A program made the translations under genes and the position numbers. This document shows, in pieces, positions 28,771-46,709 of a DNA stretch of 64,000 bases (its first letter is position 1; each line of letters starts with the position of its first letter). The notes beneath the pieces are model-generated. The model worked only from the letters and a program-made list of their open reading frames with translations, ran no database searches and was not told the DNA's origin. The DNA comes from Pedobacter sp. (GTDB lineage: Bacteria; Bacteroidota; Bacteroidia; Sphingobacteriales; Sphingobacteriaceae): the NCBI RefSeq assembly GCF_965279535.1, contig NZ_OZ257244.1, positions 4,874,713 through 4,938,712 on the forward strand. The letters are read 5' to 3'.

Positions 28771-31700
28771 CTAATCTGGGTTAGAACCTTCGTTTAGATT
28801 TTCTTTTGTGCTTTTTACATAATCTGTAGGTGATAAACCAAATTGTTTTTTAAACTCTTTGGTGAAATATTTTGGATCGCTAAAACCCACAGCATATGCT
28901 GTTTCTGAAACATTGTATACCTGCTGATTGAGGAGTTGAGCAGCTTTTTTTAACCTTACCGACTTGATGAAATCATTTACTGATAAATCTGTTAGTGCCC
29001 TGATTTTTTTATAAAGAATTGGCTGGCTCATGCCCATCTCACCCGATAACATGGGAACATTGAAGTTAGGATTAGCCAGTTGCCCTTCTATATAATTCAT
29101 GATTTTAGTTAAGAAAGCCTGATCAGGCGCTGCTATGGTAACATTTGTTGGTTCCAGGGTAACAATTTGTCCAAACTTTTGCCTGATTAGGTTTCGGGTA
29201 GCAATGAGATTCTTAATATTTGCCGCCAATAATTCGAGGCTAAAAGGCTTAGTCATATATAGGTCAGCTCCTGTTTTTAGGCCAGCTAACTGATGTGCAT
29301 GCGATGCCTTCGCTGTCAAAAGTATAACTGGGATATGACTGGTCCGGTCATCCAGCTTCACTTTCTCACAAAGTTCCAGTCCGTCAATCCCAGGCATCAT
29401 AATGTCACTGATAATTAAATCAGGAATTTGAGTGGTGGCCATTTCCAGCCCCTGAATACCATCAGCACATTCCAGTATATGGTATCTACTGAAAAGCTCG
29501 TCTCTTAGTAATTTCCTAATTTCAGGATTGTCTTCTATCAGTAGAATAGTGCTTTCTATATGTTCATTTTTGTCCGGGTTTTGCTGTAGTACCTTTTCTG
29601 AATGAGGCTGAACAAATCCTGATTCAAGCTTCTCATAAGGATCAGGTTCAACAATAGTTTTTCTGTCAAAATGAGCATTTCCCTTCTTTAGTTTTACTGA
29701 AAACGTAGTGTTGCCCTCCTTATTTGCTGCAACCGGTTGACTATTCACCTGAATTGTGCCCGAATGTAATTCTACGATAAGCTTACTTAAGGCTAAACCT
29801 ATCCCAGTTCCGGTTTGCCCCTTAGTACTATCGATCTGATAAAATGAACTAAAAAGCCTGTCCTGTTTCTCTAAAGGAATTCCCCTGCCATTATCTGTCA
29901 CCTTTATTATCACATAATCTGCAAATTCTTCAATAAATACGCTGATCTTACCGCCATTGACAGAGAACTTGAAGGCATTTGAAAGGAGGTTAAACAAAAC
30001 TTTTTCCATTTGAAAGCGGTCAAAGTAAAGTTGTATGTCTTCCGTTTGGCAGTTAAAGGTATAGTCAATTTGATTTTGCGTAGCCAATTCCTGAAAAACA
30101 TGAAATATTTGCTTTGAATAGGCTACAATATTGTTTTTACTGATATGAAGATCCATGTGTCCCGACTCTGCTTTTCTAAAATCGAGGAGTTCGGTAGTTA
30201 AGCGCATCAGGCGATCTGCATTATCCTTTATCGAGTGGAGTTGAGTACTCAAGCCGCTATCAGATGAAGCATTGTCGATCATTTTTTCCAATGGGGCCGT
30301 AATCAAAGTAAGGGGAGTCCTGATTTCATGAGAAATATTGGTGAAAAAGTCGAGTTTTAAATTATGAACCTCCTGCTCTTTTTTAAAAAGTTCCCGCATT
30401 AAAGCATATCGGAGTACGATAAAAATTATGGATCCAAAGAATACAAGATAAAACAAATAGGCGTACCAGGTTCTCCAAAGGGGGGGAAGAATTTCTATTT
30501 GAAGTTTGGATATATTTTTACTCCAAATGCCATCATTGTTACGCCCTTTAACCAATAATACATACTTACCTTCATGAAGATTAGTATAGGTTACTGAGGG
30601 GATATGCACAAAATTCCAGTCTTTCTCAAAACCACTTAACTTATAAGCATAGCTGTTATTGCCCGGCTTGATGTAGTTGAGTGTAGCAAACTCAACACTG
30701 AAAATATTCTGGTCATGGCGGAGCGTAATCTTTTGTTCTCCATTACTATCCTTTTTTATGTGGTATGGAGAGTTTGCCTCAATTGTTTTATTGAAAAGCT
30801 TAATGTCTGTGAAAATAACAGCAGGTGCGTAGTGATTTTGATGAAACTGAGCAGGAAAGAAGGATACCAGCCCACTAAAACCACCGAAAAACATTTTACC
30901 TGCTTTGTTCTTGTAATATGAGTTTTCATTGAACACATTTCCGGGAAGACCATCGTTGGAATTGTAATTTTTAAAGGTTTTCTTTTTTGTATCAAATCTT
31001 GATATACCTTTATCCGTACTTAGCCATAGAATTCCCGGCTTTTCTGTTAAAATTCCTAAAATATTATCATTAGGTAAACCATCCTTTATTCTCCAGTTCT
31101 CCAGTTTTTTAGTTTCAGGATTAAAACAGGTTATCCCACCGTAATAAAACCCAATCCATATATTTCCAGCTTCATCTTCAGTAATACAATTAGGGCTATT
31201 GCTGAAATTAAGCCGGGTAAATGCATCACTCTTGTATTTTAGAAAATAAAGACCACCAACTGCCCCAACCCAGATGTTCTTTTGGCGATCTTCATGAATG
31301 CAACGAATAATAGATTTACGTATCGCTGAATTATTCCCCTTTGAAGCATCGGGCTGACTGAATTTTAGGCTTTTTTTATCTAATAGGTTTAGGCCTCTTG
31401 TTGTTCCCACCCAAAAGCGTCTCTGGCTGTCATGCAGCATACAATAAACATTGTTAGAGCTAATGGTGCCTTTAACACCCTGCTTATTTTTATAATGGAT
31501 AAAATCTTGATTGCCTTGGTTAAATTTCTCCAGTCCGCCCAGAAATGTACCTATCCACAGCTCCCTATCTTGGTCTATATAAATTGTTTTTACCAAATTG
31601 GAGCTTAAGCTATTTGGATTTGCAGGATTATTTTTAAAGGTTCGAAAGGTTTTCGATTGTTGATGATATAAATTTAAACCTTCGGCTTCAGTTCCGATCC

Positions 31701-32832
31701 ACAGGTTTTGCTCAGCATCTTCACAAATACCGCTGATGATGTTACTGCTTAAGCTGTTCTTAAAATTGCTGCTTTTAAATACCTCAAAAGCGCTTAGGTT
31801 TGGAAATACCACATTTGCCCCACCATAATAGGTGCCAATCCATATAGAACCATGGTTATCGGCAAATATTTCATAAACAGAATTCTGACTGATACTTTTT
31901 ATATTGTCCGGATCATGTTGGTATACCATAACCTTTCCATTCAATGGATTTAAAATATTGATACCTTTCTGTGTACCAATCCACAGCAGACCATTTTTGT
32001 CCAGTAAGAGTTTGCGTACGCTATTACTGGATAAGGTTTTGTTGGCGGTAGAATAGAATTGCGTGGCTCCGGTGATCAGGTTTAATTTAATTAATCCCGC
32101 CTTGCTCGTTCCGATCCAAAGTATGTTGTGCTGATCTGTAATTAGCGTATTGATACTGTTCTCGACAATGCTGCTAATTTTCTTATTGAATGTTCGTTGA
32201 AGGTTAATTTTATAAACATTGCCGCTTTTGCTTAAGCGCATCAAACCTTTATTTGTGCCAACCCAAATAATACCTTTACCCGCGCATGCCAAAGCGGTAA
32301 TTTTGACATCTTTCAGGAATGATTTAAAAAGAGTTCTTTTTTTGTTTATCAAAAGATTTAAACCAGAATCTGTTCCAACCCATATCTTTTTGTCTTTATC
32401 TTCTAATACCGCATTAATAACATTATTAGAGAGGCTAAACCTGGCAGAAGAATGTTCAATCCGTTCAAAATTCTCACTTTCTGGATGATATTTATTCAAC
32501 CCTCCTGATGTTCCAACCCACAATGTTTTCTCCTGATCAGAGAAAAGAACCCTGATGTAATCACTGGAACTTAAAGTAGTGCTATCCTGATCCGAATGCT
32601 TAAATATCTTGATTTTGTTGGTGTCGTATTTATTTAATCCAAACCGTGTGCCTAACCAGATATATCCCTGCGCATCTTGAGTAATGGCCAATACCGAATT
32701 TTGAGAAAGCCCATTTTCTACGGTTAGGTGATGAAAGGAAATATTATCCTGACTCTGAGCTGTTGAGCAAAAGGATAGTATAAGTAATATAATAAACAGA
32801 TTCTTCAACCCATAGGGAAGTAATATTTTCAT
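28771..32832 (-). CDS. Hybrid two-component system (beta-propeller sensor, Y_Y_Y, HisKA, HATPase, REC, AraC HTH)
   Basis: Repeated LWIGT propeller blades, FFTNISHEIRTPLTLI, GTGIGLAL, PDLIISDIMMP and AYAVGFSDPKYF. ATG 32832 (MKILL) is preferred. Confidence 0.95.
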   Translation of the reverse strand: MKILLPYGLKNLFIILLILSFCSTAQSQDNISFHHLTVENGLSQNSVLAITQDAQGYIWLGTRFGLNKYDTNKIKIFKHSDQDSTTLSSSDYIRVLFSDQEKTLWVGTSGGLNKYHPESENFERIEHSSARFSLSNNVINAVLEDKDKKIWVGTDSGLNLLINKKRTLFKSFLKDVKITALACAGKGIIWVGTNKGLMRLSKSGNVYKINLQRTFNKKISSIVENSINTLITDQHNILWIGTSKAGLIKLNLITGATQFYSTANKTLSSNSVRKLLLDKNGLLWIGTQKGINILNPLNGKVMVYQHDPDNIKSISQNSVYEIFADNHGSIWIGTYYGGANVVFPNLSAFEVFKSSNFKNSLSSNIISGICEDAEQNLWIGTEAEGLNLYHQQSKTFRTFKNNPANPNSLSSNLVKTIYIDQDRELWIGTFLGGLEKFNQGNQDFIHYKNKQGVKGTISSNNVYCMLHDSQRRFWVGTTRGLNLLDKKSLKFSQPDASKGNNSAIRKSIIRCIHEDRQKNIWVGAVGGLYFLKYKSDAFTRLNFSNSPNCITEDEAGNIWIGFYYGGITCFNPETKKLENWRIKDGLPNDNILGILTEKPGILWLSTDKGISRFDTKKKTFKNYNSNDGLPGNVFNENSYYKNKAGKMFFGGFSGLVSFFPAQFHQNHYAPAVIFTDIKLFNKTIEANSPYHIKKDSNGEQKITLRHDQNIFSVEFATLNYIKPGNNSYAYKLSGFEKDWNFVHIPSVTYTNLHEGKYVLLVKGRNNDGIWSKNISKLQIEILPPLWRTWYAYLFYLVFFGSIIFIVLRYALMRELFKKEQEVHNLKLDFFTNISHEIRTPLTLITAPLEKMIDNASSDSGLSTQLHSIKDNADRLMRLTTELLDFRKAESGHMDLHISKNNIVAYSKQIFHVFQELATQNQIDYTFNCQTEDIQLYFDRFQMEKVLFNLLSNAFKFSVNGGKISVFIEEFADYVIIKVTDNGRGIPLEKQDRLFSSFYQIDSTKGQTGTGIGLALSKLIVELHSGTIQVNSQPVAANKEGNTTFSVKLKKGNAHFDRKTIVEPDPYEKLESGFVQPHSEKVLQQNPDKNEHIESTILLIEDNPEIRKLLRDELFSRYHILECADGIQGLEMATTQIPDLIISDIMMPGIDGLELCEKVKLDDRTSHIPVILLTAKASHAHQLAGLKTGADLYMTKPFSLELLAANIKNLIATRNLIRQKFGQIVTLEPTNVTIAAPDQAFLTKIMNYIEGQLANPNFNVPMLSGEMGMSQPILYKKIRALTDLSVNDFIKSVRLKKAAQLLNQQVYNVSETAYAVGFSDPKYFTKEFKKQFGLSPTDYVKSTKENLNEGSNPD

Positions 32833-32983
32833 GCGATTTGGTTTCAGGATTTGAGCTTTACCCTGCCTGAATTTAAGACAGCGTATTTCCATTTTCCTAT
32901 ACTTAAATATAAATAAAAATAGCCTAAAAATTAGATGAGGCTAAACCTTTTAAGCTTGCAATGAAGATTGTTATGGATTTTCA

Positions 32984-34639: not shown

Positions 34640-36985
34640 TTAGTTTTTAAGCGAAATCGCCAATTGCTGCTCTGTTTGATTTCTTACAACGACAATTGTG
34701 CAATCTCCTTTCCATTTAATGTTATTATATATTTTAAGTAAATCTGCAATTGAGGCTATGCTCTTATCATCTAGTTTTACAATCACATCGCCTTTCTGTA
34801 AACCATTTTTAAAAGCAATAGAATTGTTTGGTACCTGAACAATCAGCGCACCATTATTATCATGCAAACCTGCCGCAGAACGCTCACCCAGATTTTCTAT
34901 GTTTTTTACTACTCCTCCAAGCCAGGCTACAGTAGCCGACTTCTCTAATGAAAGTTTAGTGTTTACAGGATTAATCTTAGGCGATGAAGTAATTCTCTTT
35001 AGTCTTGGCTCATTGACACCAAAATCCATCGGAAAATTTTTAAAACCGATCAGTAGGGCAGGTGAATTAGGTTCAACCTGATAATTACCAGTTTTTTCAT
35101 TCAGGAATTTAGGATCTCCAAATGCACTGTGAAGGTCGATACCTAACTTTTGACTTTTAGATAAACCCTCCTCTGTTAGGAAAAAATTGTGGTCTATACT
35201 GCGGCCCCAGGTATTCATTTGAATGGGTGCATAAGGCATTGAAACAATGTTTTTTTCGAAAACGTCATCACTATTTTTTAGCCAAACATGTGGATGAAAA
35301 GTATTATTAATAATGATGTTATTGCTTACCTTACGGTGGTAGCCTTCTCTCAGTTTAAGTCCGCCGCTTAAACACACATTATTGTATATTTCATAATTTC
35401 CACTTCCATCATCAAGATCAATATCCCAGCCATGATCACATTGAAAACGATTGTTCCGGATGATGATAGGCTTTTCAACATCTAACAATTCTATGCCTGC
35501 ACGTGCGGCAACAATACTGTCAATAACCTGCCTGCTCGGACGCCAGAAACGATCTCTTCCCCAGGAATTGAATGCACCATGATCCCCTGTTTCCAATACG
35601 GTTTCAAAAACATCATTAAACTCGATCACATGGCCACCCCAGGTTCCTTCACTTACATTTATACCAGCACGCGGAACGTGGTAAATGGTATTGTGACTAA
35701 TCAGTATCTGGGATGACATTGAAAGCTGAACACCTGCTGATTGTTTTTCTATCGATCCTGTATGATGGATTAAATTGTTTGAAGCTTCACATTCCTGTGG
35801 ATAGTTATTTGACTTTGGTCCGGGCGTATAATCCATTTCATCCCAAGGGATAAAATTTTCATATCTGAAAGCAGGGGAGCGTACTGCAGCTGCATCGCCA
35901 ACAAAGGCAATGGCGCTGGCACCTATATTATGTATATGATTACCAACAACTTTGGCTCCTTTATTATAATTACTTAAGAAAATGGCATTACCGCCCAGAT
36001 TGTAAAAGTTACAGTTTTTAATGCTTACCTGTTCAGTACCATCCAGCAGGATAGCTGCTCCACGATAAATGGTCCAGTCGCTCCTTAACAAAGGTTCTTT
36101 GGTTAGCATAAAACTCCTTGCGGTTTGTGCAAAATCGATATCAGTAATGCTAATGTTTTTAATTGGAGCTTTCGCTGTACCGCTAAAATGTAAAATATCA
36201 GTTGTTGTACTGATTGTGACTTTAGCGGTTTGAATATTTACACCTGCCGGTGGTATCAGGTATATCATTTTCGATTTCTCGTCGTAAAACCATTCTCCCG
36301 CAGCATCGAGCTCCTCAAAAATATGCTCTACGTAACGGTGTTGAGGGTGCATTTTTGATGGTCTGTTGTTTTGCCAGCCACCATCTGATTTGAGTTTTCC
36401 CTTTGCATCTTTGCCTGTAATAAGATAATGAAATCCACCCCACTCACCCTGGTGAAGTGCATGGATATATCCTCCCGCTGGGTTATTCCATTTACTTATC
36501 CGATCATCCGATAAGGCATCGGCTGAAGTGCCACTAAATACCCTTGCAGTTGAATCATAATTAGGATATCTGGCCATTTGTAATAAGTGATCATTTATGA
36601 AAATCTGATCGGGACGCTCCGCTAAATCCAGCCTGGCTGATAAAATATCACCTTTAAAGGCCGCCCATTTTAATTGATAGGCTTTAGAACCAGTTATTAA
36701 AACTTTAGATCCTTTTTTTGCTCTGATGCTTAATGATTTGAGTTGATAATCGACAGCTGAAACAATAATGGTCTTTTCTATCGGGTATGTCCCCGCTAAA
36801 AGTTCGATCACAATATCCTTGCCCGGATGTTTTAGTGCCAGGCTTACTCCCTTAACAAGTGTTTTCAAGGGTTGTGTATTCGAACCAACAGCCTGATCAT
36901 TCCCGTTTGGAGAGATAAAGATGGTTTGTCCGGTGCAAAGTTTAAAGCTTAATAACAATAAGCAACTAATCAGAGGTATTCTCAT
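34640..36985 (-). CDS. Secreted right-handed beta-helix protein (GH141-like) with C-terminal PDZ domain
   Basis: IFISPNGND and MARYPN segments, many Asn-ladder repeats (HNTIYHVPRAGINV, DIDLDDGSGNYEIYNN), C-terminal GALIVQV...GLQKGDVIVKLD PDZ motif. Confidence 0.7.
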   Translation of the reverse strand: MRIPLISCLLLLSFKLCTGQTIFISPNGNDQAVGSNTQPLKTLVKGVSLALKHPGKDIVIELLAGTYPIEKTIIVSAVDYQLKSLSIRAKKGSKVLITGSKAYQLKWAAFKGDILSARLDLAERPDQIFINDHLLQMARYPNYDSTARVFSGTSADALSDDRISKWNNPAGGYIHALHQGEWGGFHYLITGKDAKGKLKSDGGWQNNRPSKMHPQHRYVEHIFEELDAAGEWFYDEKSKMIYLIPPAGVNIQTAKVTISTTTDILHFSGTAKAPIKNISITDIDFAQTARSFMLTKEPLLRSDWTIYRGAAILLDGTEQVSIKNCNFYNLGGNAIFLSNYNKGAKVVGNHIHNIGASAIAFVGDAAAVRSPAFRYENFIPWDEMDYTPGPKSNNYPQECEASNNLIHHTGSIEKQSAGVQLSMSSQILISHNTIYHVPRAGINVSEGTWGGHVIEFNDVFETVLETGDHGAFNSWGRDRFWRPSRQVIDSIVAARAGIELLDVEKPIIIRNNRFQCDHGWDIDLDDGSGNYEIYNNVCLSGGLKLREGYHRKVSNNIIINNTFHPHVWLKNSDDVFEKNIVSMPYAPIQMNTWGRSIDHNFFLTEEGLSKSQKLGIDLHSAFGDPKFLNEKTGNYQVEPNSPALLIGFKNFPMDFGVNEPRLKRITSSPKINPVNTKLSLEKSATVAWLGGVVKNIENLGERSAAGLHDNNGALIVQVPNNSIAFKNGLQKGDVIVKLDDKSIASIADLLKIYNNIKWKGDCTIVVVRNQTEQQLAISLKN

Positions 36986-37312
36986 ATAAATAATTAATTA
37001 TGCCGTCCGTATCTACCCGGAATATTTGGGGAGATTTAGCAATTTCGGATAAAATAAATATTTGGCTAAAGTCTGCTATGCTGTATTATAACAGCTGAAT
37101 TAATTAATAGTTAATTCAATAGCAAATACTAAATAAATTTTGGAAAAATATTGAGTAAAATGAGCATGTTATTCTGTGTTTTTGGTGTAAAATGAATGCT
37201 AATCATTCAGTTAAAACCATTAAACATCAATGAATTATAAATTAGAACAATCACAAAGTTCTCTTCTCGTAGCCTACAGGCAAATAATTGCTTAATTGGT
37301 TATAGCTGCTTT

Positions 37313-37546
37313 ATGAAAAAAGTACATTCTATTGATGGTAATTTTGCCATCAGGCAAGGCAAGTGGAAGCTTGAACTTTGCCCGGGGTCAGGAGGTTGGG
37401 CGGCTCCTAAAAATGCTGAAACTTTGAGAGCCGGCGATCCAGCCGTACAACTTTATGATTTATCATAGGATACAGCAGAAAAGGATAATTTACAAGCCAG
37501 ATATCATGAGGTAACCATGAGGTTGACTACTTTGTTACTGAAGTAG
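37313..37546 (+). pseudogene. C-terminal remnant of an arylsulfatase
   Basis: Reads VHSIDGNFAIRQGKWKLELCPGSGGW...VQLYDLS*DTAEKDNLQARYHEVTMRLTTLL in a single frame, with an internal TAG at 37466-37468 and no N-terminal catalytic domain. Confidence 0.75.
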
Positions 37547-37688
37547 GTAAATCAAATGATGCTTAGGTGAGCATCTGGAAGCATGAAATCAAAAATAACC
37601 GTAAACTCTTCAGTAATTTTAAATATTTAACATTTTTTTTTAACTCTATGAGTTAAAAAACAAAATTAACTCTGTTTTTTAATTAATT

Positions 37689-37730
37689 CTACTATTCCTA
37701 TAGGAATTATAGTTTTAAGTTTTATCTTTG
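37689..37730 (+). promoter_or_regulatory. Promoter and palindromic operator of the sulfatase locus
   Basis: Consensus -7 element TATCTTTG (37723-37730). 24-bp imperfect palindrome CTACTATTCCTATAGGAATTATAG with perfect 14-bp core ATTCCTATAGGAAT, over the expected -33 region. Confidence 0.7.
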
Positions 37731-37754
37731 TCGCATCATCTTTTAAAACATGAC

Positions 37755-37844
37755 ATGAAGACACTTTACAAGCACATTTCATTTCATCTAACGGCTCTAA
37801 ACACACCATTCCACCTCGGTATGCGAATGTGTTGTTGTTGTTAA
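37755..37844 (+). CDS. Putative polycysteine leader peptide (29 aa, MKTLYKHISFHLTALNTPFHLGMRMCCCC)
   Basis: ATG 24 nt after the -7 element, A-rich upstream sequence, four consecutive TGT codons immediately before TAA, at the head of a SusC/SusD/arylsulfatase locus. Confidence 0.7.
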   Translation: MKTLYKHISFHLTALNTPFHLGMRMCCCC

Positions 37845-37947
37845 ATACCACAAATAATTTTCAATAAATTAATGATTTACCTGCTTTAAGTCACGAGAAG
37901 CTTATGCTCAGACTATGGACCAGGTGAAGGTAACCACAAGAACAGCC

Positions 37948-38187
37948 ATGTACCGAATTTCTATTTCCATCACCATTATCTTTATCATTTTTCTTACAGG
38001 CTTTTCTGTTTCTAAACGCAGGCAAGCGGCAAAGCAGAAAGGAAAATCTTTATTTCCGAAGGTAGAAGCATGTTGCTCTTCGGGATTACCAAATAGATTT
38101 GGTATCCCCAGATTATCTGATACCCCGTATCAGTCCGGGGCATTAACAGCAGGCCATCAGTCATCAAAGGTAAAAAAGGCAGAATAG
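37948..38187 (+). CDS. Small exported protein with a CC motif (79 aa; 90 aa from ATG 37915)
   Basis: Hydrophobic N-terminus MYRISISITIIFIIFLTGFS, basic linker, then EACCSSGLPNRFG. Lies between the leader ORF and susC. Confidence 0.5.
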   Translation: MYRISISITIIFIIFLTGFSVSKRRQAAKQKGKSLFPKVEACCSSGLPNRFGIPRLSDTPYQSGALTAGHQSSKVKKAE

Positions 38188-38279
38188 TAGGGCTTAGCGG
38201 TAAATACCTAAATAGATATTAAGTATCAATAATTATATGTCAAAAAGGAGGGAAATACAATAAACTATACATTAAAATA

Positions 38280-38301
38280 GGGGAAACAAGCATTGTTCCC
38301 C
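38280..38301 (+). other. GC-clamped hairpin about 80 nt upstream of susC
   Basis: GGGG-A-AACAA-GCA-TTGTT-CCCC with no U-tract. Confidence 0.45.
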
Positions 38302-38380
38302 CAGGAATTAAACTATCGAAACAGGCATTCAATTGGCGTTGGCACCTGAATCTATTAACAACTTAACTCAATACAAAAGT

Positions 38381-41300
38381 ATGCAAAATTCTGATGAACT
38401 CCGACAGCAGGGCTGGCCGGATTCGAACCCTTGTGGTCAAACAGCAAGGTCTGAAAAAAAACTGTTTTCTAAATTTTCACTATGCAAGGCCCAGGTTTGT
38501 GGCCTGATGCTCTTACAAATTTTAGCTTTTTGGTTTTATGAAGGAAAAGCCCAAACTACACCCCTAATTAATTCAACCTTAAGCGGTCAGGTACTGGATT
38601 CAAAAACAAAAGAGCCTATTCCAGGTGTGGTTGTTCGGATTAATGGTACCACACACTCGGCGGCTACGGATAATGACGGGAGATTTAAGTTTGTAACCGG
38701 GCAAAAGTTTCCCTATACCTTAACCATCAGTTATATTGGTTACAAAACCCTTGAAGTTGTGGCAAATGGAAGTCCTATTCAGGTAACTTTAGAAGAACTG
38801 GCCAATCAGCTCGAAAATGTAGTGGTAATTGGCTATGGTACTCAGAAAAGAAGCGACATTACAGGTTCTGTTTCTTCTGTTTCTAAAACGGCCTTAAAAC
38901 AGCCTTTAAGTTCAGTGGATCAACTTTTAAAGGGAGCCGCCGCAGGGGTCCAGGTAACCCAAACATCTGGTCAGCCAGGTGGTGGAGTAAGCATTCGGAT
39001 TAGAGGTGGCAGCTCAGTTCAGGGTGGTAACGAGCCCCTGTATGTGGTTGATGGTTTCCCGATTTACAACAGTTCGGCATCTGCAGGAACTTTAAGCGGA
39101 ACACCACTAAACCCCTTAGCCAGTATTAACCCCTCCGATATTGAAACCGTAGATATCTTAAAGGATGCCTCAGCTACTGCAATATATGGCTCAAGAGGAG
39201 CCAATGGAGTGGTAATTATCACTACCAAAAAAGGTAAAGCAGATAGAAGTTCGGTAAGTTATGAAGGAAGTTATGGTAGCCAGGCGGTAGTTAAAAAGAT
39301 TGATGTTTTGAATGCCCGCGACTTTGCCTTGTTGAGAAACGATGTTTTTTATGATACCGACCCAGGCAAAGGCCGCTTTCAATACCTGAGTCAGGCTCAA
39401 ATAGATCAATTGGGTGCCGGAACTGATTGGCAGGGCGAAGCTTTTGTAAAAGCACCAACCCAAAACCACCAGTTAACCATTAGCGGAGGTAACCAAAAAA
39501 CACGATATCTGATTTCGGGAAACTATTTCGACCAGGAAGGAATTGTGAGAAACACAGATTATTCCCGAATTAGTGTTAGGGCCAATGTAGATGCACAACC
39601 TTTTGAAAAGTTAAAAATTAGTGCCAATATTACGGGTAGCAAGGCCGATGCAAACGTATCACCATCAGGGATAATTTCTGGTTTGTTGATTATGCCCGCT
39701 GTAGCAACTGTTTACGATGCATCAGGGGCATATACCCTTCGAAATCCGTTTGAGAATATTTTTTCTAATCCTATCGCTTCCCTCAACGAGCAAATCAATA
39801 AATCTACAACCAATAAATTTCTAGGAACCGCTTTCGGAGAATATACAATTATAGATGGATTAAACTTAAAAGTCCTTTTGGGTGCAGATGTGAATAATGT
39901 GAATGAGAAAAATTTCATTCCTTCAAGCATTTATGAAGGGGCATCAATAGGAGGTTCAGCAGGCAGAGGTACGTATAATTCTTACTCCTGGTTAAATGAA
40001 AATACACTTTCTTACTCTAAAATCCTGGGAAAACATACCATTGATGCCTTAATCGGTTTTACACAGCAAGAGTTTAAAAGTGAAACTGTTCGATCAAATG
40101 CCCAGAAATTTGTAACTGACGATTTAACCTACAATAGTTTACAAAGTGGCGCCACATTGGTAGCACCTTATTCAGATGCAGCGTCATGGGTCCTTCATTC
40201 TTATCTGGCCAGGGTTAACTACAGTTATAACAATTTATATTTTTTAACGGGCAGCATCAGGGCCGATGGCTCTTCCAGGTTTGGTAAGGGCAATAAGTGG
40301 GGGTATTTCCCCTCTGCAGCAGCTTCCTGGAAGTTAAGCAATGAGGATTTTTTTGAACCCCTGAAAGCGGTGGTATCTGAACTGAAAGTGAGGGGAAGTT
40401 TTGGGACAACAGGAAATTTGGAAATTGGCCAATATCAATCTTTGGCAACCCTTTATAGCTTGAATTACGTTTTCGGAGGAGCAACTTCTACCGGATTTGC
40501 GCCAAATAGAATCGCAAATGATAATTTAGGTTGGGAAACCACTCATCAGTATGATGCAGGAATCGATGTTGGATTTTTGAATAACAGAATTCAACTGACA
40601 CTAGATGCCTACTACAAAAAAACGGAAGATCTTTTATTGAATGTCGAAATTCCATGGACCACTGGTTATGCTTCTTCACTTCAAAATTATGGTTCGGTAT
40701 CTAATAAAGGGCTTGAAATTGGTTTAAATACTAAAAATTTAACAGGTGAACTGGTTTGGAATACCAATCTCAATCTTTCTATTAACAGAAATAAGGTGCT
40801 GGCCATTGGAAACGGGGCTCAATCCTACATCAGCGGAAATTACATAGTACAGGTAGGTCAACCCCTGGGCAGCTTTTATGGAAATTTAACTAACGGAATT
40901 TTGCAAACCGGTGAAGAGGCTACAAAGGGGAAGTTTACCGGAAGCGCGGTGCCTAAGGCCGGAGACCGCTTATATCAGGATGTTAATGGCGATGGAACTT
41001 TTACCGTTGCTGCGGATAAAGCAATCATTGGAAATGCACAACCCGATTTTATATTCGGTTTAACCAATAGTTGGGAGTGGAAGGGATTTGATTTAACTGT
41101 TTTTATACAGGGCGCTTATGGCAACCAGATTTTAAACTCGAACAGGCAAACCCTGGAGCTGTTTACAGGACAACAAAATGCTTCTACTACAGCACTGGAC
41201 CGTTGGACAACCACCAATCCGAGCCAAACTATTCCCAGGGCTAAACTGGATCCGGCACCGGTATTTTCCGATCGGTTCATTGAAGATGGCTCTTTCTTAA

Positions 41301-41527
41301 GGCTGAAGGATATCTCATTTGGTTATACTTTGCCCAGAAGAATTAGTACTAAAGCCAAATTATCCAATGTCTATTTCTATATAGCTGGTCAAAACCTGCT
41401 TACCTGGACAGATTATTCAGGCTTCGATCCTGAGATTACTTCAGGTAGCAATGTTTCTCCGGGAACTGATTCAGGAATTTACCCAATAGCTAAATCAATT
41501 AGGGCAGGCTTACGATTAACTTTTTAA
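38381..41527 (+). CDS. SusC/RagA TonB-dependent receptor of the sulfatase locus
   Basis: [41 protein letters not shown], terminal GLRLTF. ATG 38381 is preferred over TTG 38333. Confidence 0.95.
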   Translation: MQNSDELRQQGWPDSNPCGQTARSEKKLFSKFSLCKAQVCGLMLLQILAFWFYEGKAQTTPLINSTLSGQVLDSKTKEPIPGVVVRINGTTHSAATDNDGRFKFVTGQKFPYTLTISYIGYKTLEVVANGSPIQVTLEELANQLENVVVIGYGTQKRSDITGSVSSVSKTALKQPLSSVDQLLKGAAAGVQVTQTSGQPGGGVSIRIRGGSSVQGGNEPLYVVDGFPIYNSSASAGTLSGTPLNPLASINPSDIETVDILKDASATAIYGSRGANGVVIITTKKGKADRSSVSYEGSYGSQAVVKKIDVLNARDFALLRNDVFYDTDPGKGRFQYLSQAQIDQLGAGTDWQGEAFVKAPTQNHQLTISGGNQKTRYLISGNYFDQEGIVRNTDYSRISVRANVDAQPFEKLKISANITGSKADANVSPSGIISGLLIMPAVATVYDASGAYTLRNPFENIFSNPIASLNEQINKSTTNKFLGTAFGEYTIIDGLNLKVLLGADVNNVNEKNFIPSSIYEGASIGGSAGRGTYNSYSWLNENTLSYSKILGKHTIDALIGFTQQEFKSETVRSNAQKFVTDDLTYNSLQSGATLVAPYSDAASWVLHSYLARVNYSYNNLYFLTGSIRADGSSRFGKGNKWGYFPSAAASWKLSNEDFFEPLKAVVSELKVRGSFGTTGNLEIGQYQSLATLYSLNYVFGGATSTGFAPNRIANDNLGWETTHQYDAGIDVGFLNNRIQLTLDAYYKKTEDLLLNVEIPWTTGYASSLQNYGSVSNKGLEIGLNTKNLTGELVWNTNLNLSINRNKVLAIGNGAQSYISGNYIVQVGQPLGSFYGNLTNGILQTGEEATKGKFTGSAVPKAGDRLYQDVNGDGTFTVAADKAIIGNAQPDFIFGLTNSWEWKGFDLTVFIQGAYGNQILNSNRQTLELFTGQQNASTTALDRWTTTNPSQTIPRAKLDPAPVFSDRFIEDGSFLRLKDISFGYTLPRRISTKAKLSNVYFYIAGQNLLTWTDYSGFDPEITSGSNVSPGTDSGIYPIAKSIRAGLRLTF

Positions 41528-41556
41528 TTGTGCAGTGCTCATTAAAATATAATCCA

Positions 41557-43032
41557 ATGAACAATAGAAAAATATTATGGGCTTTAATCCTTGTTTTTAG
41601 CATCTCAAGCTGCTCAAAACTGGAAGAAGATCCCGATTCGGTTTTAGTTACCGAACAGTTTTATCAGAATGAAAATCAAGCTGTCTCGGCTGTAACAGCA
41701 AATTACAGAAAGCTGTATGAAAGTGGTCAGTCTCTGTATAACAGTCTTTTCCAGATTGGTGTAGAAATGGCAACAGATGATTATGAAGCTGGTCCCAGGG
41801 CAAGAAACGCACATGTAAGAGCCATTTCAGGGCTTACCCACGACTCCTCAAACGATAGAATGGAGCAATTGTGGAAGCAAAGTTATGATGGTATTAATGC
41901 TTCAAATATTGCCATTGATAAGATTGCTCAAATTGACGCCGGCAAAATAAGTGCAACAATCAGAACCCGCTTAATCAATGAATCTAAATTTTTAAGGGCA
42001 CTGCATTATTTCAATCTCGTGCGCTGGTTTGGCGATATTCCCATCGTACTCCACGAAACGACTTCATTAACACCTGAAAATCTGTATGTTGCCAATGCTG
42101 CCGAATCTGCTGTGTACGCGCAAATTATTCAAGATCTAAAAGATGCAGAAGGACTTCCCTCTGCGGCAGAATACGGAAGTAAAGATATAGGCCGGGCAAC
42201 CTCCGGAGCTGCAAAAAGCTTATTGGCTAAAGTATACCTGACGCAGAAAGATTGGGCTAATGCGGCTAAAAAAAGTAAGGAAGTGATTGATAGCAAGGCT
42301 TATGGCTTGTTTAGTAATTTTGCAGACGTATTTAATGTGGCTACCAAAAATGGTAAGGAACACATTTTTTCTGCCCAGTTTGTTGGCAATGCAGGCTATC
42401 AGGGCAACAGTTTAGCCAGCCGATCTGCAGCTGCAGATGTGCCGGGGATTAATGGCGATTATGCCGATGCACTACATACCGCAGGGGGACTTTATGAAAC
42501 GTTTAGCAACAATGATACCCGTAAAACCGTTACTTTTGTAACACAATTAGTAAGTCCGACTAACGGGCAGCTTTATACTTTCTCTCCTCAGTTTTTTAAA
42601 TATTACGATCCTGCTGTGGTAGGTAATCAGGGCCAATCATCTAAAAACTTACCCATTATCCGTTATGCAGAAGTACTTTTAATATATGCCGAAGCTTTAA
42701 ATGAACAAAATACAGGTCCCAATAGTGATGCCTATACTGCGATTAATGAAGTAAGGCTCAGGGCTGGGATTGGTAAGCTGGAGGATGTTTCTCCGGGCCT
42801 GAACCTGAATACTTTTCGTGATGCAGTTTTTTTAGAGCGGAGAAGGGAATTTGTTTACGAGTACCAGCGTTGGTTTGATCTGGCCAGAAGAGGCGCAGAT
42901 TATTATATCGCTACATTAAAAGCTGCAGGCAAAACACTGGCTGCAAAAAGACATATTCACTTTCCAATTCCGCAAAGAGAACTAAATCTGAATCCAAAAT
43001 TGAAACAAAACCCTGATTGGGTGGGCTTCTAA
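41557..43032 (+). CDS. RagB/SusD family lipoprotein
   Basis: Lipobox SISSC, KFLRALHYFNLVRWFG, IRYAEVLLIYAEA and ERRREFVYEYQRWFDL. Start ATG 41557. Confidence 0.95.
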   Translation: MNNRKILWALILVFSISSCSKLEEDPDSVLVTEQFYQNENQAVSAVTANYRKLYESGQSLYNSLFQIGVEMATDDYEAGPRARNAHVRAISGLTHDSSNDRMEQLWKQSYDGINASNIAIDKIAQIDAGKISATIRTRLINESKFLRALHYFNLVRWFGDIPIVLHETTSLTPENLYVANAAESAVYAQIIQDLKDAEGLPSAAEYGSKDIGRATSGAAKSLLAKVYLTQKDWANAAKKSKEVIDSKAYGLFSNFADVFNVATKNGKEHIFSAQFVGNAGYQGNSLASRSAAADVPGINGDYADALHTAGGLYETFSNNDTRKTVTFVTQLVSPTNGQLYTFSPQFFKYYDPAVVGNQGQSSKNLPIIRYAEVLLIYAEALNEQNTGPNSDAYTAINEVRLRAGIGKLEDVSPGLNLNTFRDAVFLERRREFVYEYQRWFDLARRGADYYIATLKAAGKTLAAKRHIHFPIPQRELNLNPKLKQNPDWVGF

Positions 43033-43043
43033 TTTCTAAAAAT

Positions 43044-44693
43044 ATGAATCAAAAAATAAAGTTTCCTGTAAAAGCTGTTGGGATGGCTTTTACAATAATC
43101 ATGCTCCTTGGAACCAATGCCTGGGCACAAAAGAAAGCGAAACCAAATATTGTTTTGGTTTTGGTTGATGATCTGGGTTTTTCAGATATCGGTCCTTACG
43201 GTGCTGCAGATATTGCGACACCAAATTTAGATCGCTTAGCGGCTGAAGGTATCCGGTTTAAAGAGTTTTATAATAATTCTATTTGTGCACCAACACGGGC
43301 ATCGTTGCTCACAGGACAATATCAACATAAAGCCGGAGTAGGTTTCTTTAACAACAACTTGGGATTACCTGCTTATCAGGGTTTTTTAAATAAAGAATCA
43401 CTCACTTTAGCAGAGGTGTTGAAAACAGCAGGATACACTACCCTTATGTCTGGTAAATGGCATGTGGGTGATGATGAAAATCAATGGCCAAACCAGAGGG
43501 GTTTTGATCATTTCTTCGGTTTCATAGGTGGGGCAAGTAATTACTACGAGATTGGGAACCAGGGTAAACCAACAGTACCTTTAGTAAAAGATAATAAGCC
43601 ATTTTATCTGGAACCAGGGAAATACCTTACGGAAGAAATCACCAATAATGCACTTGGGTTTTTAGACGATCAGCAGAAAACGAATAAGCCATTTTTTTTA
43701 TACCTGGCTTACAATGCCCCGCACTGGCCATTACAGGCATTGCCGGCAGATTTGGCTAAGTACAAAGGAAAGTATAAAAAGGGATGGGATTCTCTTCGGA
43801 TAGAGCGATACCAGAACGCTATAAAAAAAGGTGTAATTGATGCCGGGCAAAAAATTGCTGTTCAGGATGCTCAGGTGAAGCCCTGGAATAAGCTTACTTA
43901 TGATGAGCAACAATATTGGCAAACCCGTCAGGAAGTATATGCTTCGATGATTGACCATGTTGATCAGGGAATAGGTCGTTTATTAGCCAAACTAAAAGCA
44001 CTTAAACAAGACGACAATACGATCATTATTTTTATCTCGGATAATGGTGCGCAAGGTGGAAATGGAACGCGTTTATATACTTCGCGTAATACTGGTTTGG
44101 TAGGTACTGCCGGTTCATATGAAACACAAAACAGCAACTGGTCGCAAACAGGAAATTCTCCTCACCGGGATTACAAGGGGGCGCCTTACGAGGGCGGAAT
44201 CAGTGCTCCGTTCATTGCCTGGTATCCACAAAAAATTAAAGCCAGTAGCATAAGCCAGGGTACTGCACACCTGATTGACCTTGCTCCAACCTTCTATGAA
44301 CTGGCAGGAGCAAAATATCCCTCAGTTTTAAACGGGGTAAGCAGTAATGCACTTCCAGGAAAAAGTTTACTTCCTGTGCTAACAGGTAAAGCGGGTAGAG
44401 TAGAACGGGGAGAACCCCTTTTTTGGGAGCGTGGTGGAAATAAAGCTGTTAGAGATGGAGACTGGAAGTTGGTTTCATCAGCAGCTAAGGGAGAGAAATA
44501 CGAATTGTTCAATATCGCCGAAGATAGGGCTGAAAATTTGGATGTTGCCGCCCAGCACCCCGATATTGTTGCCCGGTTGAAAGCAGCATATGCGCAGTGG
44601 GCAGAGAAAAATGGTGTAGTCGATTACAACAAGTTAAAGTCTGTCCCTGTTCGTCAGCAAGGTGCTCCAAACAGGGGAAATCAAAATTTTTAA
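43044..44693 (+). CDS. Arylsulfatase (Cys-type S1, AtsA-like), secreted
   Basis: KPNIVLVLVDDLGFSD, active-site motif CAPTRASLLTG, SGKWHVG, YNAPHWPL and SDNG. Start ATG 43044. Confidence 0.93.
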   Translation: MNQKIKFPVKAVGMAFTIIMLLGTNAWAQKKAKPNIVLVLVDDLGFSDIGPYGAADIATPNLDRLAAEGIRFKEFYNNSICAPTRASLLTGQYQHKAGVGFFNNNLGLPAYQGFLNKESLTLAEVLKTAGYTTLMSGKWHVGDDENQWPNQRGFDHFFGFIGGASNYYEIGNQGKPTVPLVKDNKPFYLEPGKYLTEEITNNALGFLDDQQKTNKPFFLYLAYNAPHWPLQALPADLAKYKGKYKKGWDSLRIERYQNAIKKGVIDAGQKIAVQDAQVKPWNKLTYDEQQYWQTRQEVYASMIDHVDQGIGRLLAKLKALKQDDNTIIIFISDNGAQGGNGTRLYTSRNTGLVGTAGSYETQNSNWSQTGNSPHRDYKGAPYEGGISAPFIAWYPQKIKASSISQGTAHLIDLAPTFYELAGAKYPSVLNGVSSNALPGKSLLPVLTGKAGRVERGEPLFWERGGNKAVRDGDWKLVSSAAKGEKYELFNIAEDRAENLDVAAQHPDIVARLKAAYAQWAEKNGVVDYNKLKSVPVRQQGAPNRGNQNF

Positions 44694-44705
44694 AGCGATA
44701 AAACG

Positions 44706-46352
44706 ATGAAAAGAAAAATATTAACATTCCTCTGTGCGGCCTTAACCTTGCAGAGCATGGCTCAAAAGGTAGCTAAACCCAATATCATTCTGATTTTGGC
44801 TGACGATTTAGGCTACTCAGATTTAGGGGCTTATGGTTCAGAGATTCATACGCCTAATCTTGATCGTTTGGCCAATGAAGGCTTACGATTGCAAGAATTT
44901 TATAACAATTCTATTTGCGCACCAACCCGGGCTTCTTTATTAACAGGGCAATATCAGCACAAAGCTGGAGTAGGTTATTTCGCTAATGATTTGGGCTTAC
45001 CTGCCTATCAGGGATATCTGAATAAAGAATCTTTAACCTTAGCCGAAGTGTTAAAAAGTGGTGGTTATCACACGCTGATGTCAGGAAAGTGGCATGTGTC
45101 TGGTAAAGATCAAAGTTATCCTTGGCAAAGGGGATTTGAGCAGGTAATGATGTCGGAGAACGGAAGTTATTTCGATCAGGGCGATTTTAACGGAGGCAGA
45201 AAAAGACCCTATACCTTAAACGGCAAACCATACGATTTAGCGGCAGGTAAATTTTACCAAACTGATGTAATTACCGAAAATGCAATAAACTTTCTGGATA
45301 AAAAGGAGAGTGCCAATAAACCTTTCTTCCTTTATCTGGCTTATACGGCACCCCATTGGCCTTTGCATGCGCTCCCAGAGGATATTGCGAAGTACAAAGG
45401 CAGATATGATAAAGGTTGGGATGTTTTAAGAGCAGAACGTTTGGAGCGTCAGAAGAAGTTAGGGATAATCGATAATCAGGCAAGTGTATCTGAAAAGGAT
45501 GCAGATATTTACGACTGGAGTAAGCTTTCATACGATCAACGTTCGCAATGGGCAAAAAAAATGGAAATCTTTGCTGCTATGGTAGATCGTTTAGACCAGG
45601 GGATTGGTAAAGTTTTGGAAAAACTTAAAGCTACGGGTGCAGATAAGAACACGCTCATTGTATTTATTTCTGATAATGGTGCGCCTGCAGAAGATCTGGT
45701 AACCTGGTATCATGGAGCAGTTAGAAATACTGGTGAGGTAGGTACCATAGGTTCTTATGAATCGCAAAGTAAAAACTGGTCTTATGCTTCCAATACGCCA
45801 TTTAAGGCCTTTAAAGATTACATGTATGAAGGTGGAATCAGCTCTCCTTTTATCGCCTGGTATCCTGCTAAAATTAAAGCCGGCAGCATTAAAAAAGGTA
45901 CAGGACACATCATTGATATAGCACCAACATTTTATGATTTGGCTGGCGTAGTTTATCCAAAGAAATTGAATGATGTAACCGCCAACCCACTGGCAGGGAA
46001 AAGCTTGTTGCCTGTGCTTTTTGCTGATCAAAAGGCCGTAGATCGTCAGCAACCTTTATTTTGGGAAAGGGCCGGCAACAGGGCGGTACGCCAGGGGAAA
46101 TGGAAACTGGTGTCTACCTGGCCAAGCTATAACTGGGAACTGTATGATCTAGAAAATGATCGTGCTGAGACTAAAAATGTAGCCCGCCAAAATCACGATG
46201 TGGTGAGCAAACTATCTGTGGCTTATTTTGATTGGGCAAAGAAAACGGGGGTGGTTGATTTTGCTACTCTGGAAGCCAAAGAACCTGCTTCAATGAAAGA
46301 ATTCAGAAAAAGTAAAGTGCAGGAACAAGCAGTTGAAAGTTACGGCTTTTAA
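44706..46352 (+). CDS. Arylsulfatase (Cys-type S1, AtsA-like), tandem paralogue
   Basis: KPNIILILADDLGYSD, CAPTRASLLTG, SGKWHVS, YTAPHWPL and SDNG. Confidence 0.93.
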   Translation: MKRKILTFLCAALTLQSMAQKVAKPNIILILADDLGYSDLGAYGSEIHTPNLDRLANEGLRLQEFYNNSICAPTRASLLTGQYQHKAGVGYFANDLGLPAYQGYLNKESLTLAEVLKSGGYHTLMSGKWHVSGKDQSYPWQRGFEQVMMSENGSYFDQGDFNGGRKRPYTLNGKPYDLAAGKFYQTDVITENAINFLDKKESANKPFFLYLAYTAPHWPLHALPEDIAKYKGRYDKGWDVLRAERLERQKKLGIIDNQASVSEKDADIYDWSKLSYDQRSQWAKKMEIFAAMVDRLDQGIGKVLEKLKATGADKNTLIVFISDNGAPAEDLVTWYHGAVRNTGEVGTIGSYESQSKNWSYASNTPFKAFKDYMYEGGISSPFIAWYPAKIKAGSIKKGTGHIIDIAPTFYDLAGVVYPKKLNDVTANPLAGKSLLPVLFADQKAVDRQQPLFWERAGNRAVRQGKWKLVSTWPSYNWELYDLENDRAETKNVARQNHDVVSKLSVAYFDWAKKTGVVDFATLEAKEPASMKEFRKSKVQEQAVESYGF

Positions 46353-46356
46353 AATG

Positions 46357-46390
46357 CCGGCAGGAGAGGCTTTACTGCGTCGCCTGCCGG
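46357..46390. terminator. Stem-loop between convergent genes, probable terminator
   Basis: CCGGCAGG...CCTGCCGG 8-bp perfect stem. The U-tract is weak. Confidence 0.5.
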
Positions 46391-46412
46391 TTATTATACC
46401 TTCATTTTGCTT

Positions 46413-46709
46413 TTAAAAATCTGATGGTGTATAGTAGTTTGTTTTAAGAACAGAAAGTTCTTTCTGACTAATCATATCCTGATAAATTAAAGCAAGCGGC
46501 AGAACAGCACCTTTACCATCGGCTGATAGGAAGGTCAGATTTGAATCATGAGAATAGCCCAACATATGCGCCATTTCATGCACCGCAGTAAAACAAATCT
46601 CCTGGGGTGTATAGTTCTTTAAGATAACCTCGCCAAGACCGAAAGTTGAACCACCCGCAAAACCGGGAGCATTTACGCATACGCCACACCCAAAAAAGGG
46701 TTTTGACAT
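46413..46709 (-). pseudogene. C-terminal fragment of a zincin metallopeptidase
   Basis: HEMAHMLGYSH (HExxHxxGxxH). 98 aa, no signal peptide, with an in-frame stop five codons upstream of the ATG. Confidence 0.55.

Follow-up and report, generated by a model that had tools for sequence, protein, structure and literature searches.

What does a SusC/SusD outer-membrane pair collect when the genes that follow it encode sulfatases? The question is raised by the locus at 37723-46390 of a 64,000-nt stretch of Pedobacter sp. DNA (the window, corresponding to positions 4874713-4938712 of a genome assembled as a single 5.47-Mb contig; positions below are those of the window unless given as genome positions). 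SusC/SusD loci are routinely counted as polysaccharide utilization loci (PULs), and their sulfatases are read as markers of sulfated-glycan degradation. A preliminary description of this DNA proposed that the locus captures sulfur rather than sugar. Our analysis supports that proposal through the conservation of the gene cassette and its neighbours, poly-Cys leaders, a shared sequence motif, and the depletion of Met and Cys in the encoded proteins. We consider it likely that the locus is a self-contained sulfur-acquisition operon of this Pedobacter, which would harvest sulfur from sulfate esters under starvation. Its parts are the following.

37688-37710, plus strand: operator-like motif of 23 nt, TCTACTATTCCTATAGGAATTAT, which contains the palindrome ATTCCTATAGGAAT and overlaps the expected -33 region
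37723-37730, plus strand: putative -7 promoter box of the Bacteroidota type, TATCTTTG (TAnnTTTG), a consensus match read from the sequence
37755-37844, plus strand: leader short open reading frame (sORF) of 29 codons, ending MRMCCCC-stop
37915-38187, plus strand: predicted N-terminal relic of a formylglycine-generating enzyme (FGE), 90 codons, by alignment to full-length FGEs
38280-38349, plus strand: bipartite element in the 5' leader of susC, conserved upstream of susC in relatives
38381-41527, plus strand: SusC, 1048 aa (TIGR04056, 920.2 bits)
41557-43032, plus strand: SusD lipoprotein, 491 aa (PF07980, PF14322, lipobox)
43044-44693, plus strand: predicted sulfatase A of family S1, 549 aa (PF00884, E 4e-67)
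44706-46352, plus strand: predicted sulfatase B of family S1, 548 aa (PF00884, E 3e-62)
46356-46397, plus strand: terminator-like hairpin GCCGGCAGG...CCTGCCGG followed by TTATTAT, read from the sequence

The promoter, the Cys leader, SusC, SusD, the two Cys-type sulfatases and the terminal stem-loop all lie where the preliminary description had placed them. The stem-loop is a GC hairpin with a T-rich tail that starts 4 nt past the stop codon of sulfatase B. SusC is a SusC/RagA TonB-linked outer-membrane transporter: its TIGR04056 score compares with a cutoff of 368, the SusC signature TIGR04057 gave 63.7 bits (cutoff 46.2), the Plug domain had an E value of 5e-20, and CarboxypepD_reg was matched; the domain search found no STN domain. 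The start at ATG 38381 agrees with the conserved MQN start of SusC. A start at TTG 38333 was rejected, as the conserved block there is out of frame or interrupted by stop codons in orthologues. The susD gene begins about 30 nt past the susC stop and encodes a SusD/RagB outer-membrane lipoprotein (SusD_RagB E 1e-36, SusD-like_3 E 2e-20, lipobox ...FSISS followed by C).

Is this arrangement a unit? Related loci were gathered with a SusD-alignment scan, keeping one genome per species, and this gave 80 loci. In all 80 of them the order SusC, SusD, one or two sulfatases is kept, with identities of at least 55%, contig ends permitting. The cassette is found in the classes Sphingobacteriia, Chitinophagia, Cytophagia, Flavobacteriia and Bacteroidia, with representatives in Pedobacter, Mucilaginibacter, Sphingobacterium, Chitinophaga, Niabella, Filimonas, Ohtaekwangia, Chryseolinea, Cyclobacteriaceae, Flavobacterium, Paludibacter, Tannerella and the termite-gut and rumen Bacteroidales; the habitats of these Bacteroidota include soil, rhizosphere, freshwater and gut. 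SusD identity across the classes is unusually high (60-87%), which suggests one conserved ligand. Within Pedobacter, the four genes were present at 68-87% identity in 7 of 36 other genomes searched, and in none of these seven did the flanking genes of the window accompany the cassette. All 699 flanking open reading frames (ORFs) of the 80 loci were clustered. Four flank families, and no others, recurred across genera: FGE (22 loci), a rhodanese-thioredoxin fusion (20 loci, at a median distance of 250 nt), a transporter of the PF03601/YeiH type (16 loci) and a hexapeptide transferase (6 loci). Among these flanks no recurrent family of glycoside hydrolases or lyases was seen. Of the hallmarks of a PUL, the SusC/SusD pair alone is present, with no conserved carbohydrate-active enzyme (CAZyme) and no linked regulator of the hybrid two-component system (HTCS), extracytoplasmic function (ECF) or SusR type.

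What, then, would switch such a unit on? The leader sORF (MKTLYKHISFHLTALNTPFHLGMRMCCCC-stop) has its ATG about 25 nt past the -7 box and carries Met or Cys at six of its last seven codons. C-terminal poly-Cys sORFs, in which 3-5 Cys codons stand at or close to the stop, are kept upstream of the first gene of the cassette in Pedobacter, Filimonas, Chitinophaga, Mucilaginibacter, Niabella, Chryseolinea, Cyclobacteriaceae and a Flavobacterium. Their tails read ...SMRMCCCCA, ...FSMRMANMCCC and ...MQMMMCCCCNE in Pedobacter, ...SSFRCCC in Filimonas, ...CGARCCFVCCCRR in Chitinophaga, ...VCMCCCC in Mucilaginibacter, ...SMFCCCC in Niabella, ...SACCCCC in Chryseolinea, ...CSCCCC in Cyclobacteriaceae and ...GRMCCCC in Flavobacterium palustre. 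The N-terminal parts of the peptides are unrelated between genera, and only the Cys run (in Pedobacter together with flanking Met codons) and its placement at the stop are conserved. Such a pattern marks a codon sensor rather than a functional peptide, and a short upstream ORF whose run of regulatory codons is conserved apart from the rest of the peptide is what characterises a leader attenuator. By a strict rule, poly-Cys sORFs were present at 25 of 74 related loci, compared to 0.16 in dinucleotide shuffles; under the same rule the opposite strand gave 0, and runs of ten other amino acids gave 0-1. A relaxed rule raised the count to 34 of 74. A near-identical strain in a public run has leader changes at 37791 and 37811 (Thr to Pro and Phe to Leu), both in the N-terminal half, and an unchanged Met/Cys tail.

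The same leader design recurs in this genome, where the upstream regions contain eight poly-Cys sORFs (0.77 expected). One precedes metY (O-acetylhomoserine sulfhydrylase)-metX-hom, another a second SusC-SusD-sulfatase locus, and two AhpC/TSA-type redoxin genes are likewise preceded by poly-Cys sORFs. S-adenosylmethionine (SAM)-I riboswitches, identified with Rfam, adjoin three of the sORFs, namely those of metY, of a bare SusC-SusD pair and of the redoxins. Among 74 SusC paralogues four have a poly-Cys leader, and the context of all four is sulfur-related.

The operator-like motif ties the locus to the same set of genes. Its 23-nt consensus, TCTACTAAWTCYATAGRWTTTAT, occurs also at four other poly-Cys-leader loci of the genome and in the orthologous promoters, in which a TAnnTTTG box stands at the same relative position as here. 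A position weight matrix was built from five sites and scanned over intergenic DNA with shuffle controls; it gave 21 matches of at least 16 bits against 0.65 in shuffles, and 13 of at least 20 bits against none. One match falls in the gap that separates the gene of an Rrf2-family regulator from the sulfite reductase gene of a sulfate-assimilation cluster (genome 5001872-5010140, in which the Rrf2 gene, at 5001872-5002309, comes first, then sulfite reductase, cobA, cysH, cysD and cysN). Another precedes a second cobA-type (tetrapyrrole methylase) gene adjoining that cluster, and others stand before a further redoxin gene, a thioredoxin-reductase-like gene and an amino-acid permease gene. We infer that the Rrf2 protein is a candidate binder of the motif and a candidate master regulator of its regulon. 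A search with a 14-bp palindrome (AATTCTATAGAATT, up to two mismatches) was too loose to interpret and was replaced by the 23-nt matrix with its shuffle controls.

Three other loci of this putative regulon are described here. At genome 1103173-1108185 (minus strand) a SAM-I riboswitch (81 bits) and an sORF ending ...VMCCCFN are followed by SusC and SusD with no enzyme gene; the SusC has 4 Met and 0 Cys, and the pair looks like a Sus-like importer under combined methionine/SAM and cysteine control. At genome 1340355-1353827 (minus strand) an sORF ending ...PICCCCS precedes SusC, SusD (0 Met, 1 Cys), an S51 peptidase and two unknown proteins, and the operon continues with a cytochrome c, a sulfite-oxidase-like molybdoenzyme, an FAD oxidoreductase and a PF03601 transporter. 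The operon may serve organosulfur uptake and sulfite handling. At genome 973796-974749 the 23-nt motif and an sORF ending ...SRMRMCCCCA, the tail seen in leaders of the sulfatase locus in sister species, stand directly before a gene for a PhyH-family Fe/2-oxoglutarate dioxygenase. The enzyme is reminiscent of the desulfonating and desulfating dioxygenases of the TauD/AtsK type.

The composition of the proteins points in the same direction. Excluding the initiator, SusC contains 2 Met and 3 Cys in 1047 residues, and its N-terminal signal region holds all of the Cys and one of the Met; its orthologues across the 80 loci have a median of 2 Met and 0 Cys. SusD has 2 Met and 1 Cys (that of the lipobox), the second lowest content of 39 SusD paralogues, and sulfatase A, with 4 Met and the catalytic residue as its single Cys, ranks lowest among 10 sulfatase paralogues. 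Met and Cys together make up 0.48% of SusC, 0.61% of SusD and 0.91% of sulfatase A, against a proteome median of 2.7%, which places them at percentiles 1.2, 1.9 and 4.7 of the proteome. No such depletion is seen in sulfatase B (23rd percentile). SusC, SusD and sulfatase A thus share the Met/Cys depletion of sulfate-starvation-induced proteins, a composition expected of proteins made under sulfur scarcity.

How would the operon work? We infer induction, ligand, import, the direction of control and the RNA mechanism as follows. SusD would bind a sulfate-esterified organic compound, and SusC would carry it across the outer membrane with TonB energy. Two periplasmic S1_4-type sulfatases, matured by an FGE, would then free inorganic sulfate, as their family and targeting signals suggest, and the host sulfate-reduction pathway would assimilate it. 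The genome encodes sulfite reductase, cysH, cysD and cysN and can thus use the released sulfate. The carbon skeleton would not be the prize; consistent with this model, the cassette encodes nothing for importing or catabolising it. Expression would occur when sulfur is short. Scarcity of Cys-tRNA, and probably of Met-tRNA, would stall the ribosome on the Met/Cys tail of the leader, and the stall would relieve attenuation of the downstream genes, by analogy to the polycysteine sORFs of mycobacteria (10.1101/834739). A DNA-binding regulator, for which the Rrf2 protein is a candidate, would add a second layer of control at the 23-nt operator common to the sulfate-assimilation regulon.

The two sulfatases, A and B, are 56% identical, and both have the sequence C-A-P-T-R (...NNSIC... 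stands at the position of the motif in A). In an alignment of B to 1HDH, C-A-P-T-R and the catalytic and Ca-binding positions of AtsA (DD, K..H, H, DN, K) are kept. Both are predicted to be formylglycine-dependent sulfatases of family S1. They begin with signal peptides of the signal peptidase I type (ending AWA before Q in A, SMA before Q in B) and have no extra C-terminal domain, and are therefore most likely periplasmic. The best solved relatives are 7ALL and Pseudomonas aeruginosa AtsA, 1HDH (E 3.7e-95 and 9.5e-88 for A; 4.7e-96 and 5.4e-95 for B). With A and B as queries, these two structures scored 298-326 bits and the next ones, the S1_19 carrageenan sulfatases, 198-220. Judged by these nearest solved structures, A and B look like S1_4-type enzymes. 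SulfAtlas places AtsA in S1_4, and the enzyme is produced in sulfate-free medium (PMC5066984). The structure 7ALL was deposited with the study of BT4683, and its residue numbering fits Arg72 and Glu335 of that enzyme, so we take it to be BT4683. The BT4683 study terms S1_4 "this arylsulfatase subfamily", yet activities on 3S-Gal and 6S-Gal were found in S1_4, which includes the glycan-active BT4683 and BT3487 and both endo- and exo-acting enzymes. With AtsA and glycan-active enzymes side by side in S1_4, the substrate cannot be read from the subfamily. Relative to BT4683, sulfatase B has Ile in place of Arg72, a residue of BT4683 that determines specificity, keeps the equivalent of Glu335 and has no aligned counterpart of Trp505. 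The ligand may be a small sulfate ester (aryl or alkyl) or else an oligomer bearing sulfate.

Several observations weigh against sulfur acquisition as the function of the locus, and we take them up with the explanations that they would favour. Some concern the surroundings. The preliminary description had stated that no glycoside hydrolase, lyase or local regulator is present. A profile search of the window proteins agrees for 37723-46390, where it returned no CAZyme and no regulator. The 10 kb upstream contain the following genes.

27689-28477, minus strand: GH16 (glycoside hydrolase family 16) protein
28771-32892, minus strand: hybrid two-component regulator (HTCS), 5.5 kb upstream of the susC start
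34640-36985, minus strand: right-handed beta-helix protein, 781 aa, with a C-terminal PDZ domain; nearest solved relatives 9RX2 and BT_1002 (5MQP)

BT_1002 (5MQP) is a glycoside hydrolase, and the beta-helix protein, an unusual PDZ fusion, is possibly a CAZyme. With these genes 1-10 kb upstream, the locus could be an ordinary accessory PUL under HTCS control, which would take up a sulfated polysaccharide fragment as a carbon source and whose sulfatases would unblock the fragment so that glycosidases with genes outside the locus, such as the GH16 or the beta-helix protein, could act on it. SusC/SusD pairs classically import glycans, SusC/SusD loci are densely packed in the window, which is rich in PULs, and S1_4 includes the carbohydrate-active BT4683 and BT3487. 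The equivalent of BT4683 Glu335 is retained in sulfatase B, without that of Arg72, so the ligand could still be a sulfated glycan. Yet the HTCS, GH16 and beta-helix genes stand beside the cassette in none of the other genomes examined, that is, neither in the 7 other Pedobacter nor at the 80 loci. As they do not travel with the cassette, they belong to the local neighbourhood and are not its members. The neighbours that do recur are FGE, the rhodanese-thioredoxin protein and the PF03601 transporter. In addition, the cassette has no inner-membrane sugar transporter and no cytoplasmic sugar enzyme, its SusC lacks the STN domain, and its promoter has, by eye, no C-rich repeat of the kind noted for HTCS. 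A poly-Cys leader, an operator shared with the cys operon and proteins poor in sulfur would be out of place at a carbon-source locus. We consider an accessory PUL unlikely.

Other points concern the sORF. In about half of the related loci, among them most of those from Sphingobacterium, Flavobacterium and Bacteroidales, no poly-Cys sORF was seen within 1 kb. In Flavobacterium loci whose 1 kb ahead of susC showed none, the start of the operon may lie at a greater distance, or its control may be of another kind. When the Cys-codon tract was paired with the sequence past the stop by RNAduplex (25 loci, 200 dinucleotide shuffles each), the duplexes had a mean z of -0.74, 16% of loci fell below -1.64, and the pairing was clearly significant in a Pedobacter subclade only. 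In minimum-free-energy folds of 14 leaders the hairpins differed per lineage, and no terminator/antiterminator consistent across lineages was found. Given the lineage-specific folds and the weak duplex signal, no common RNA mechanism can be claimed. An Rfam scan of 36900-38600, at E values up to 1, found no relevant family. No RNA run carrying the DNA of the locus was found; the matching public runs are DNA-like, with flat depth over 15 kb, and the available RNA runs were labelled as another organism. In the tna operon of Escherichia coli a Rho entry site is shielded, and Bacteroidota are largely without Shine-Dalgarno-led initiation. With the stall site directly at the stop codon, a shielded Rho entry site is here as plausible as an unmasked start site. 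Separately, the region some 2-6 kb upstream of susC in Flavobacterium loci encodes further sulfur-poor sulfatases (about 30% identity to A and B), a fatty-acid-hydroxylase-family protein and a rhodanese-thioredoxin protein.

These doubts would suit an arrangement in which the locus is regulated by sulfur and the sORF is not the sensor. Control would then be purely transcriptional, through the operator-like motif common to the putative regulon, and the sORF would be a by-product or would encode a Cys-rich peptide, for metal binding or as the precursor of a ribosomally synthesised and post-translationally modified peptide (RiPP). The lack of the sORF in some lineages and of a conserved alternative RNA structure fits this. 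A functional peptide, on the other hand, should not vary in all but its C-terminal Cys/Met run and the position of its stop, and no maturase or exporter is linked to it. Three sORFs stand beside SAM riboswitches, and two of these loci have no operator site of at least 16 bits; moreover, the same design has been proven experimentally in mycobacteria (10.1101/834739). A sORF without a sensing role is, in our judgement, quite unlikely.

A last set of points concerns the integrity of the locus. The small CC protein of the preliminary description does exist as an ORF at 37915-38187, and is not a protein in its own right. The 90-aa ORF carries ACCSSGLPNRF and has no Pfam match; at 35-42% identity it aligns to complete FGEs (367-385 aa, PF03781 E 1e-80) over their first ~85 residues, and these FGEs occupy the slot between leader and susC in sister Pedobacter. 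The aligned part of these FGEs ends where the catalytic domain would begin. The ORF is thus judged, from this alignment, to be a relic of an FGE and not a member of the FGE family: the CCxxxLPNRF motif and the membrane anchor are kept and the catalytic domain is deleted. The full-length FGE in the slot of sister species indicates an ancestral operon leader-FGE-SusC-SusD-sulfatase-sulfatase, a module that would have carried its own maturation enzyme. This strain, as well as several other species, has lost the FGE copy of the cassette.

Could the locus be decaying and no longer functional in this strain? Besides the FGE relic, the C-terminal relic of a sulfatase lies at 37313-37560 (plus strand), just upstream of the promoter. 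It reads ...GKWKLELCPGSGGW...QLYDLS*DTAEKDNL, in which the asterisk is an in-frame TAG, and has 35% identity to residues 457-505 of sulfatase B; it derives from an unrelated third S1 enzyme, and its place beside the promoter hints at a past rearrangement at this site. Against decay, SusC, SusD and both sulfatases are intact, 68-87% identical to their orthologues, with catalytic motifs and signal peptides kept. A full-length FGE paralogue (55% identity) is intact at genome 428729-429841, and several Pedobacter species without FGE in the cassette keep the leader and all four genes. Loss of function is therefore very unlikely indeed. On the other side of the operon, a 98-aa ORF at 46413-46709 (minus strand) contains HEMAHMLGYSHD, an HExxH zinc-protease motif, and had no Pfam or NCBIfam match; it is a fragment or a minimal metalloprotease-like protein.

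A further feature lies between the leader and the transporter gene. About 45 nt before the susC start there is a bipartite element, consisting of a GC hairpin (38280-38302) and of ACAGG-N4-CAATTGGCGTTGGC-N-CCTG(T) (38321-38349), and it is present at 27 of the 80 related loci. The sequence of the first stem varies with the hairpin kept; the second stem shows one compensatory pair and is ACAAG/CTTGT in Sphingobacterium. The core of the element, TTGGCGTTGGC, is too short for genome-wide specificity; in a genome-wide scan, the copy at this locus was the only one that is intergenic with a flanking inverted repeat. The element had no Rfam match; a role in RNA control or processing, confined to this SusC family, is possible.

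Does the sulfur-acquisition reading extend beyond Pedobacter? The wider proposal is that Bacteroidota throughout the phylum use a family of Sus-like importers for sulfur and not for a carbon source, switched on by a poly-Cys ribosome sensor to which an Rrf2-type operator and, in sister loci, SAM riboswitches would add further layers. We give this about even chances. Were it true, the conservation of SusD would mean a single widespread natural sulfate ester as ligand, and another RNA control element, so far undescribed, might reside in the CAATTGGCGTTGGC hairpin ahead of susC. Sulfur in aerobic soils is mostly organic and largely in the form of sulfate esters (PMC3596284; PMC4267179), and the genes by which the abundant soil Bacteroidota mobilise it have not been described so far. 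The cassette appears to be a kit for sulfur starvation, and inferences of glycan degradation from genomes and metagenomes would be inflated if it were counted among the PULs. The poly-Cys leader would be a simple marker of sulfur regulons, readable from sequence, in a phylum whose sulfur regulation is poorly known, and the highly conserved SusD would be a good bait for the discovery of the natural ligand.

How does the locus compare to known systems? We found neither sulfur-scavenging loci of the SusC/SusD type nor, for Bacteroidota, poly-Cys leaders described in the literature; as coverage was incomplete, prior publication is possible. The sulfatase PULs of Bacteroides (e.g. that of BT4683, an S1_4 enzyme with endo activity on 3S-Gal of mucin O-glycans) likewise combine SusC/SusD with S1 sulfatases. 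Their role is in carbon nutrition, and they include glycoside hydrolases together with HTCS or ECF regulators, whereas the locus described here has no CAZyme, sulfur-related linked genes, sulfur-poor proteins and a Cys leader.

Functionally nearest is the atsACBR-sftR-atsK-sftP system of Pseudomonas, which comprises the arylsulfatase AtsA, the ABC importer AtsRBC, the TonB-dependent receptor SftP and the LysR regulator SftR (PMC3596284). It too obtains sulfur from sulfate esters when sulfate is short, with an S1_4 arylsulfatase and a TonB-dependent receptor (PMC3596284; PMC5066984). The receptor of the Pedobacter locus is a SusC/SusD pair instead, and there is no ABC transporter, no AtsK and no LysR regulator; control appears to be exerted by the poly-Cys leader and an unrelated operator. 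Pseudomonas AtsA has no signal peptide, whereas the sulfatases here have signal peptides and would be periplasmic, so that no importer of the ester across the inner membrane would be needed.

In its regulation the locus recalls the classical attenuators of the trp, his and leu operons of Proteobacteria, in which a short ORF is rich in codons of the amino acid that the operon restores. In contrast to these, no terminator/antiterminator pair was identified here, and the genes serve uptake and scavenging and not biosynthesis. To our knowledge, a poly-Cys ribosome sensor has been demonstrated experimentally in mycobacteria only. There, polycysteine leaderless sORFs act as Cys-responsive attenuators of a "Cys ribulon" (Canestrari et al., bioRxiv 10.1101/834739). 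As in that system, sORFs with runs of Cys codons precede several sulfur-related operons of one genome, and the proposed logic, by which a ribosome paused for lack of Cys-tRNA would turn the downstream genes on, is alike. The two differ in that the Cys run in Bacteroidota always abuts the stop codon, often after Met codons, and that the transcripts are probably not leaderless. The mycobacterial mechanism uses a duplex that sequesters the ribosome-binding site, whereas here pairing of the Cys tract is only weakly better than in shuffles. The device proposed for this locus would resemble that of the Cys ribulon, in another phylum and placed ahead of SusC/SusD importers, which are among its targets.

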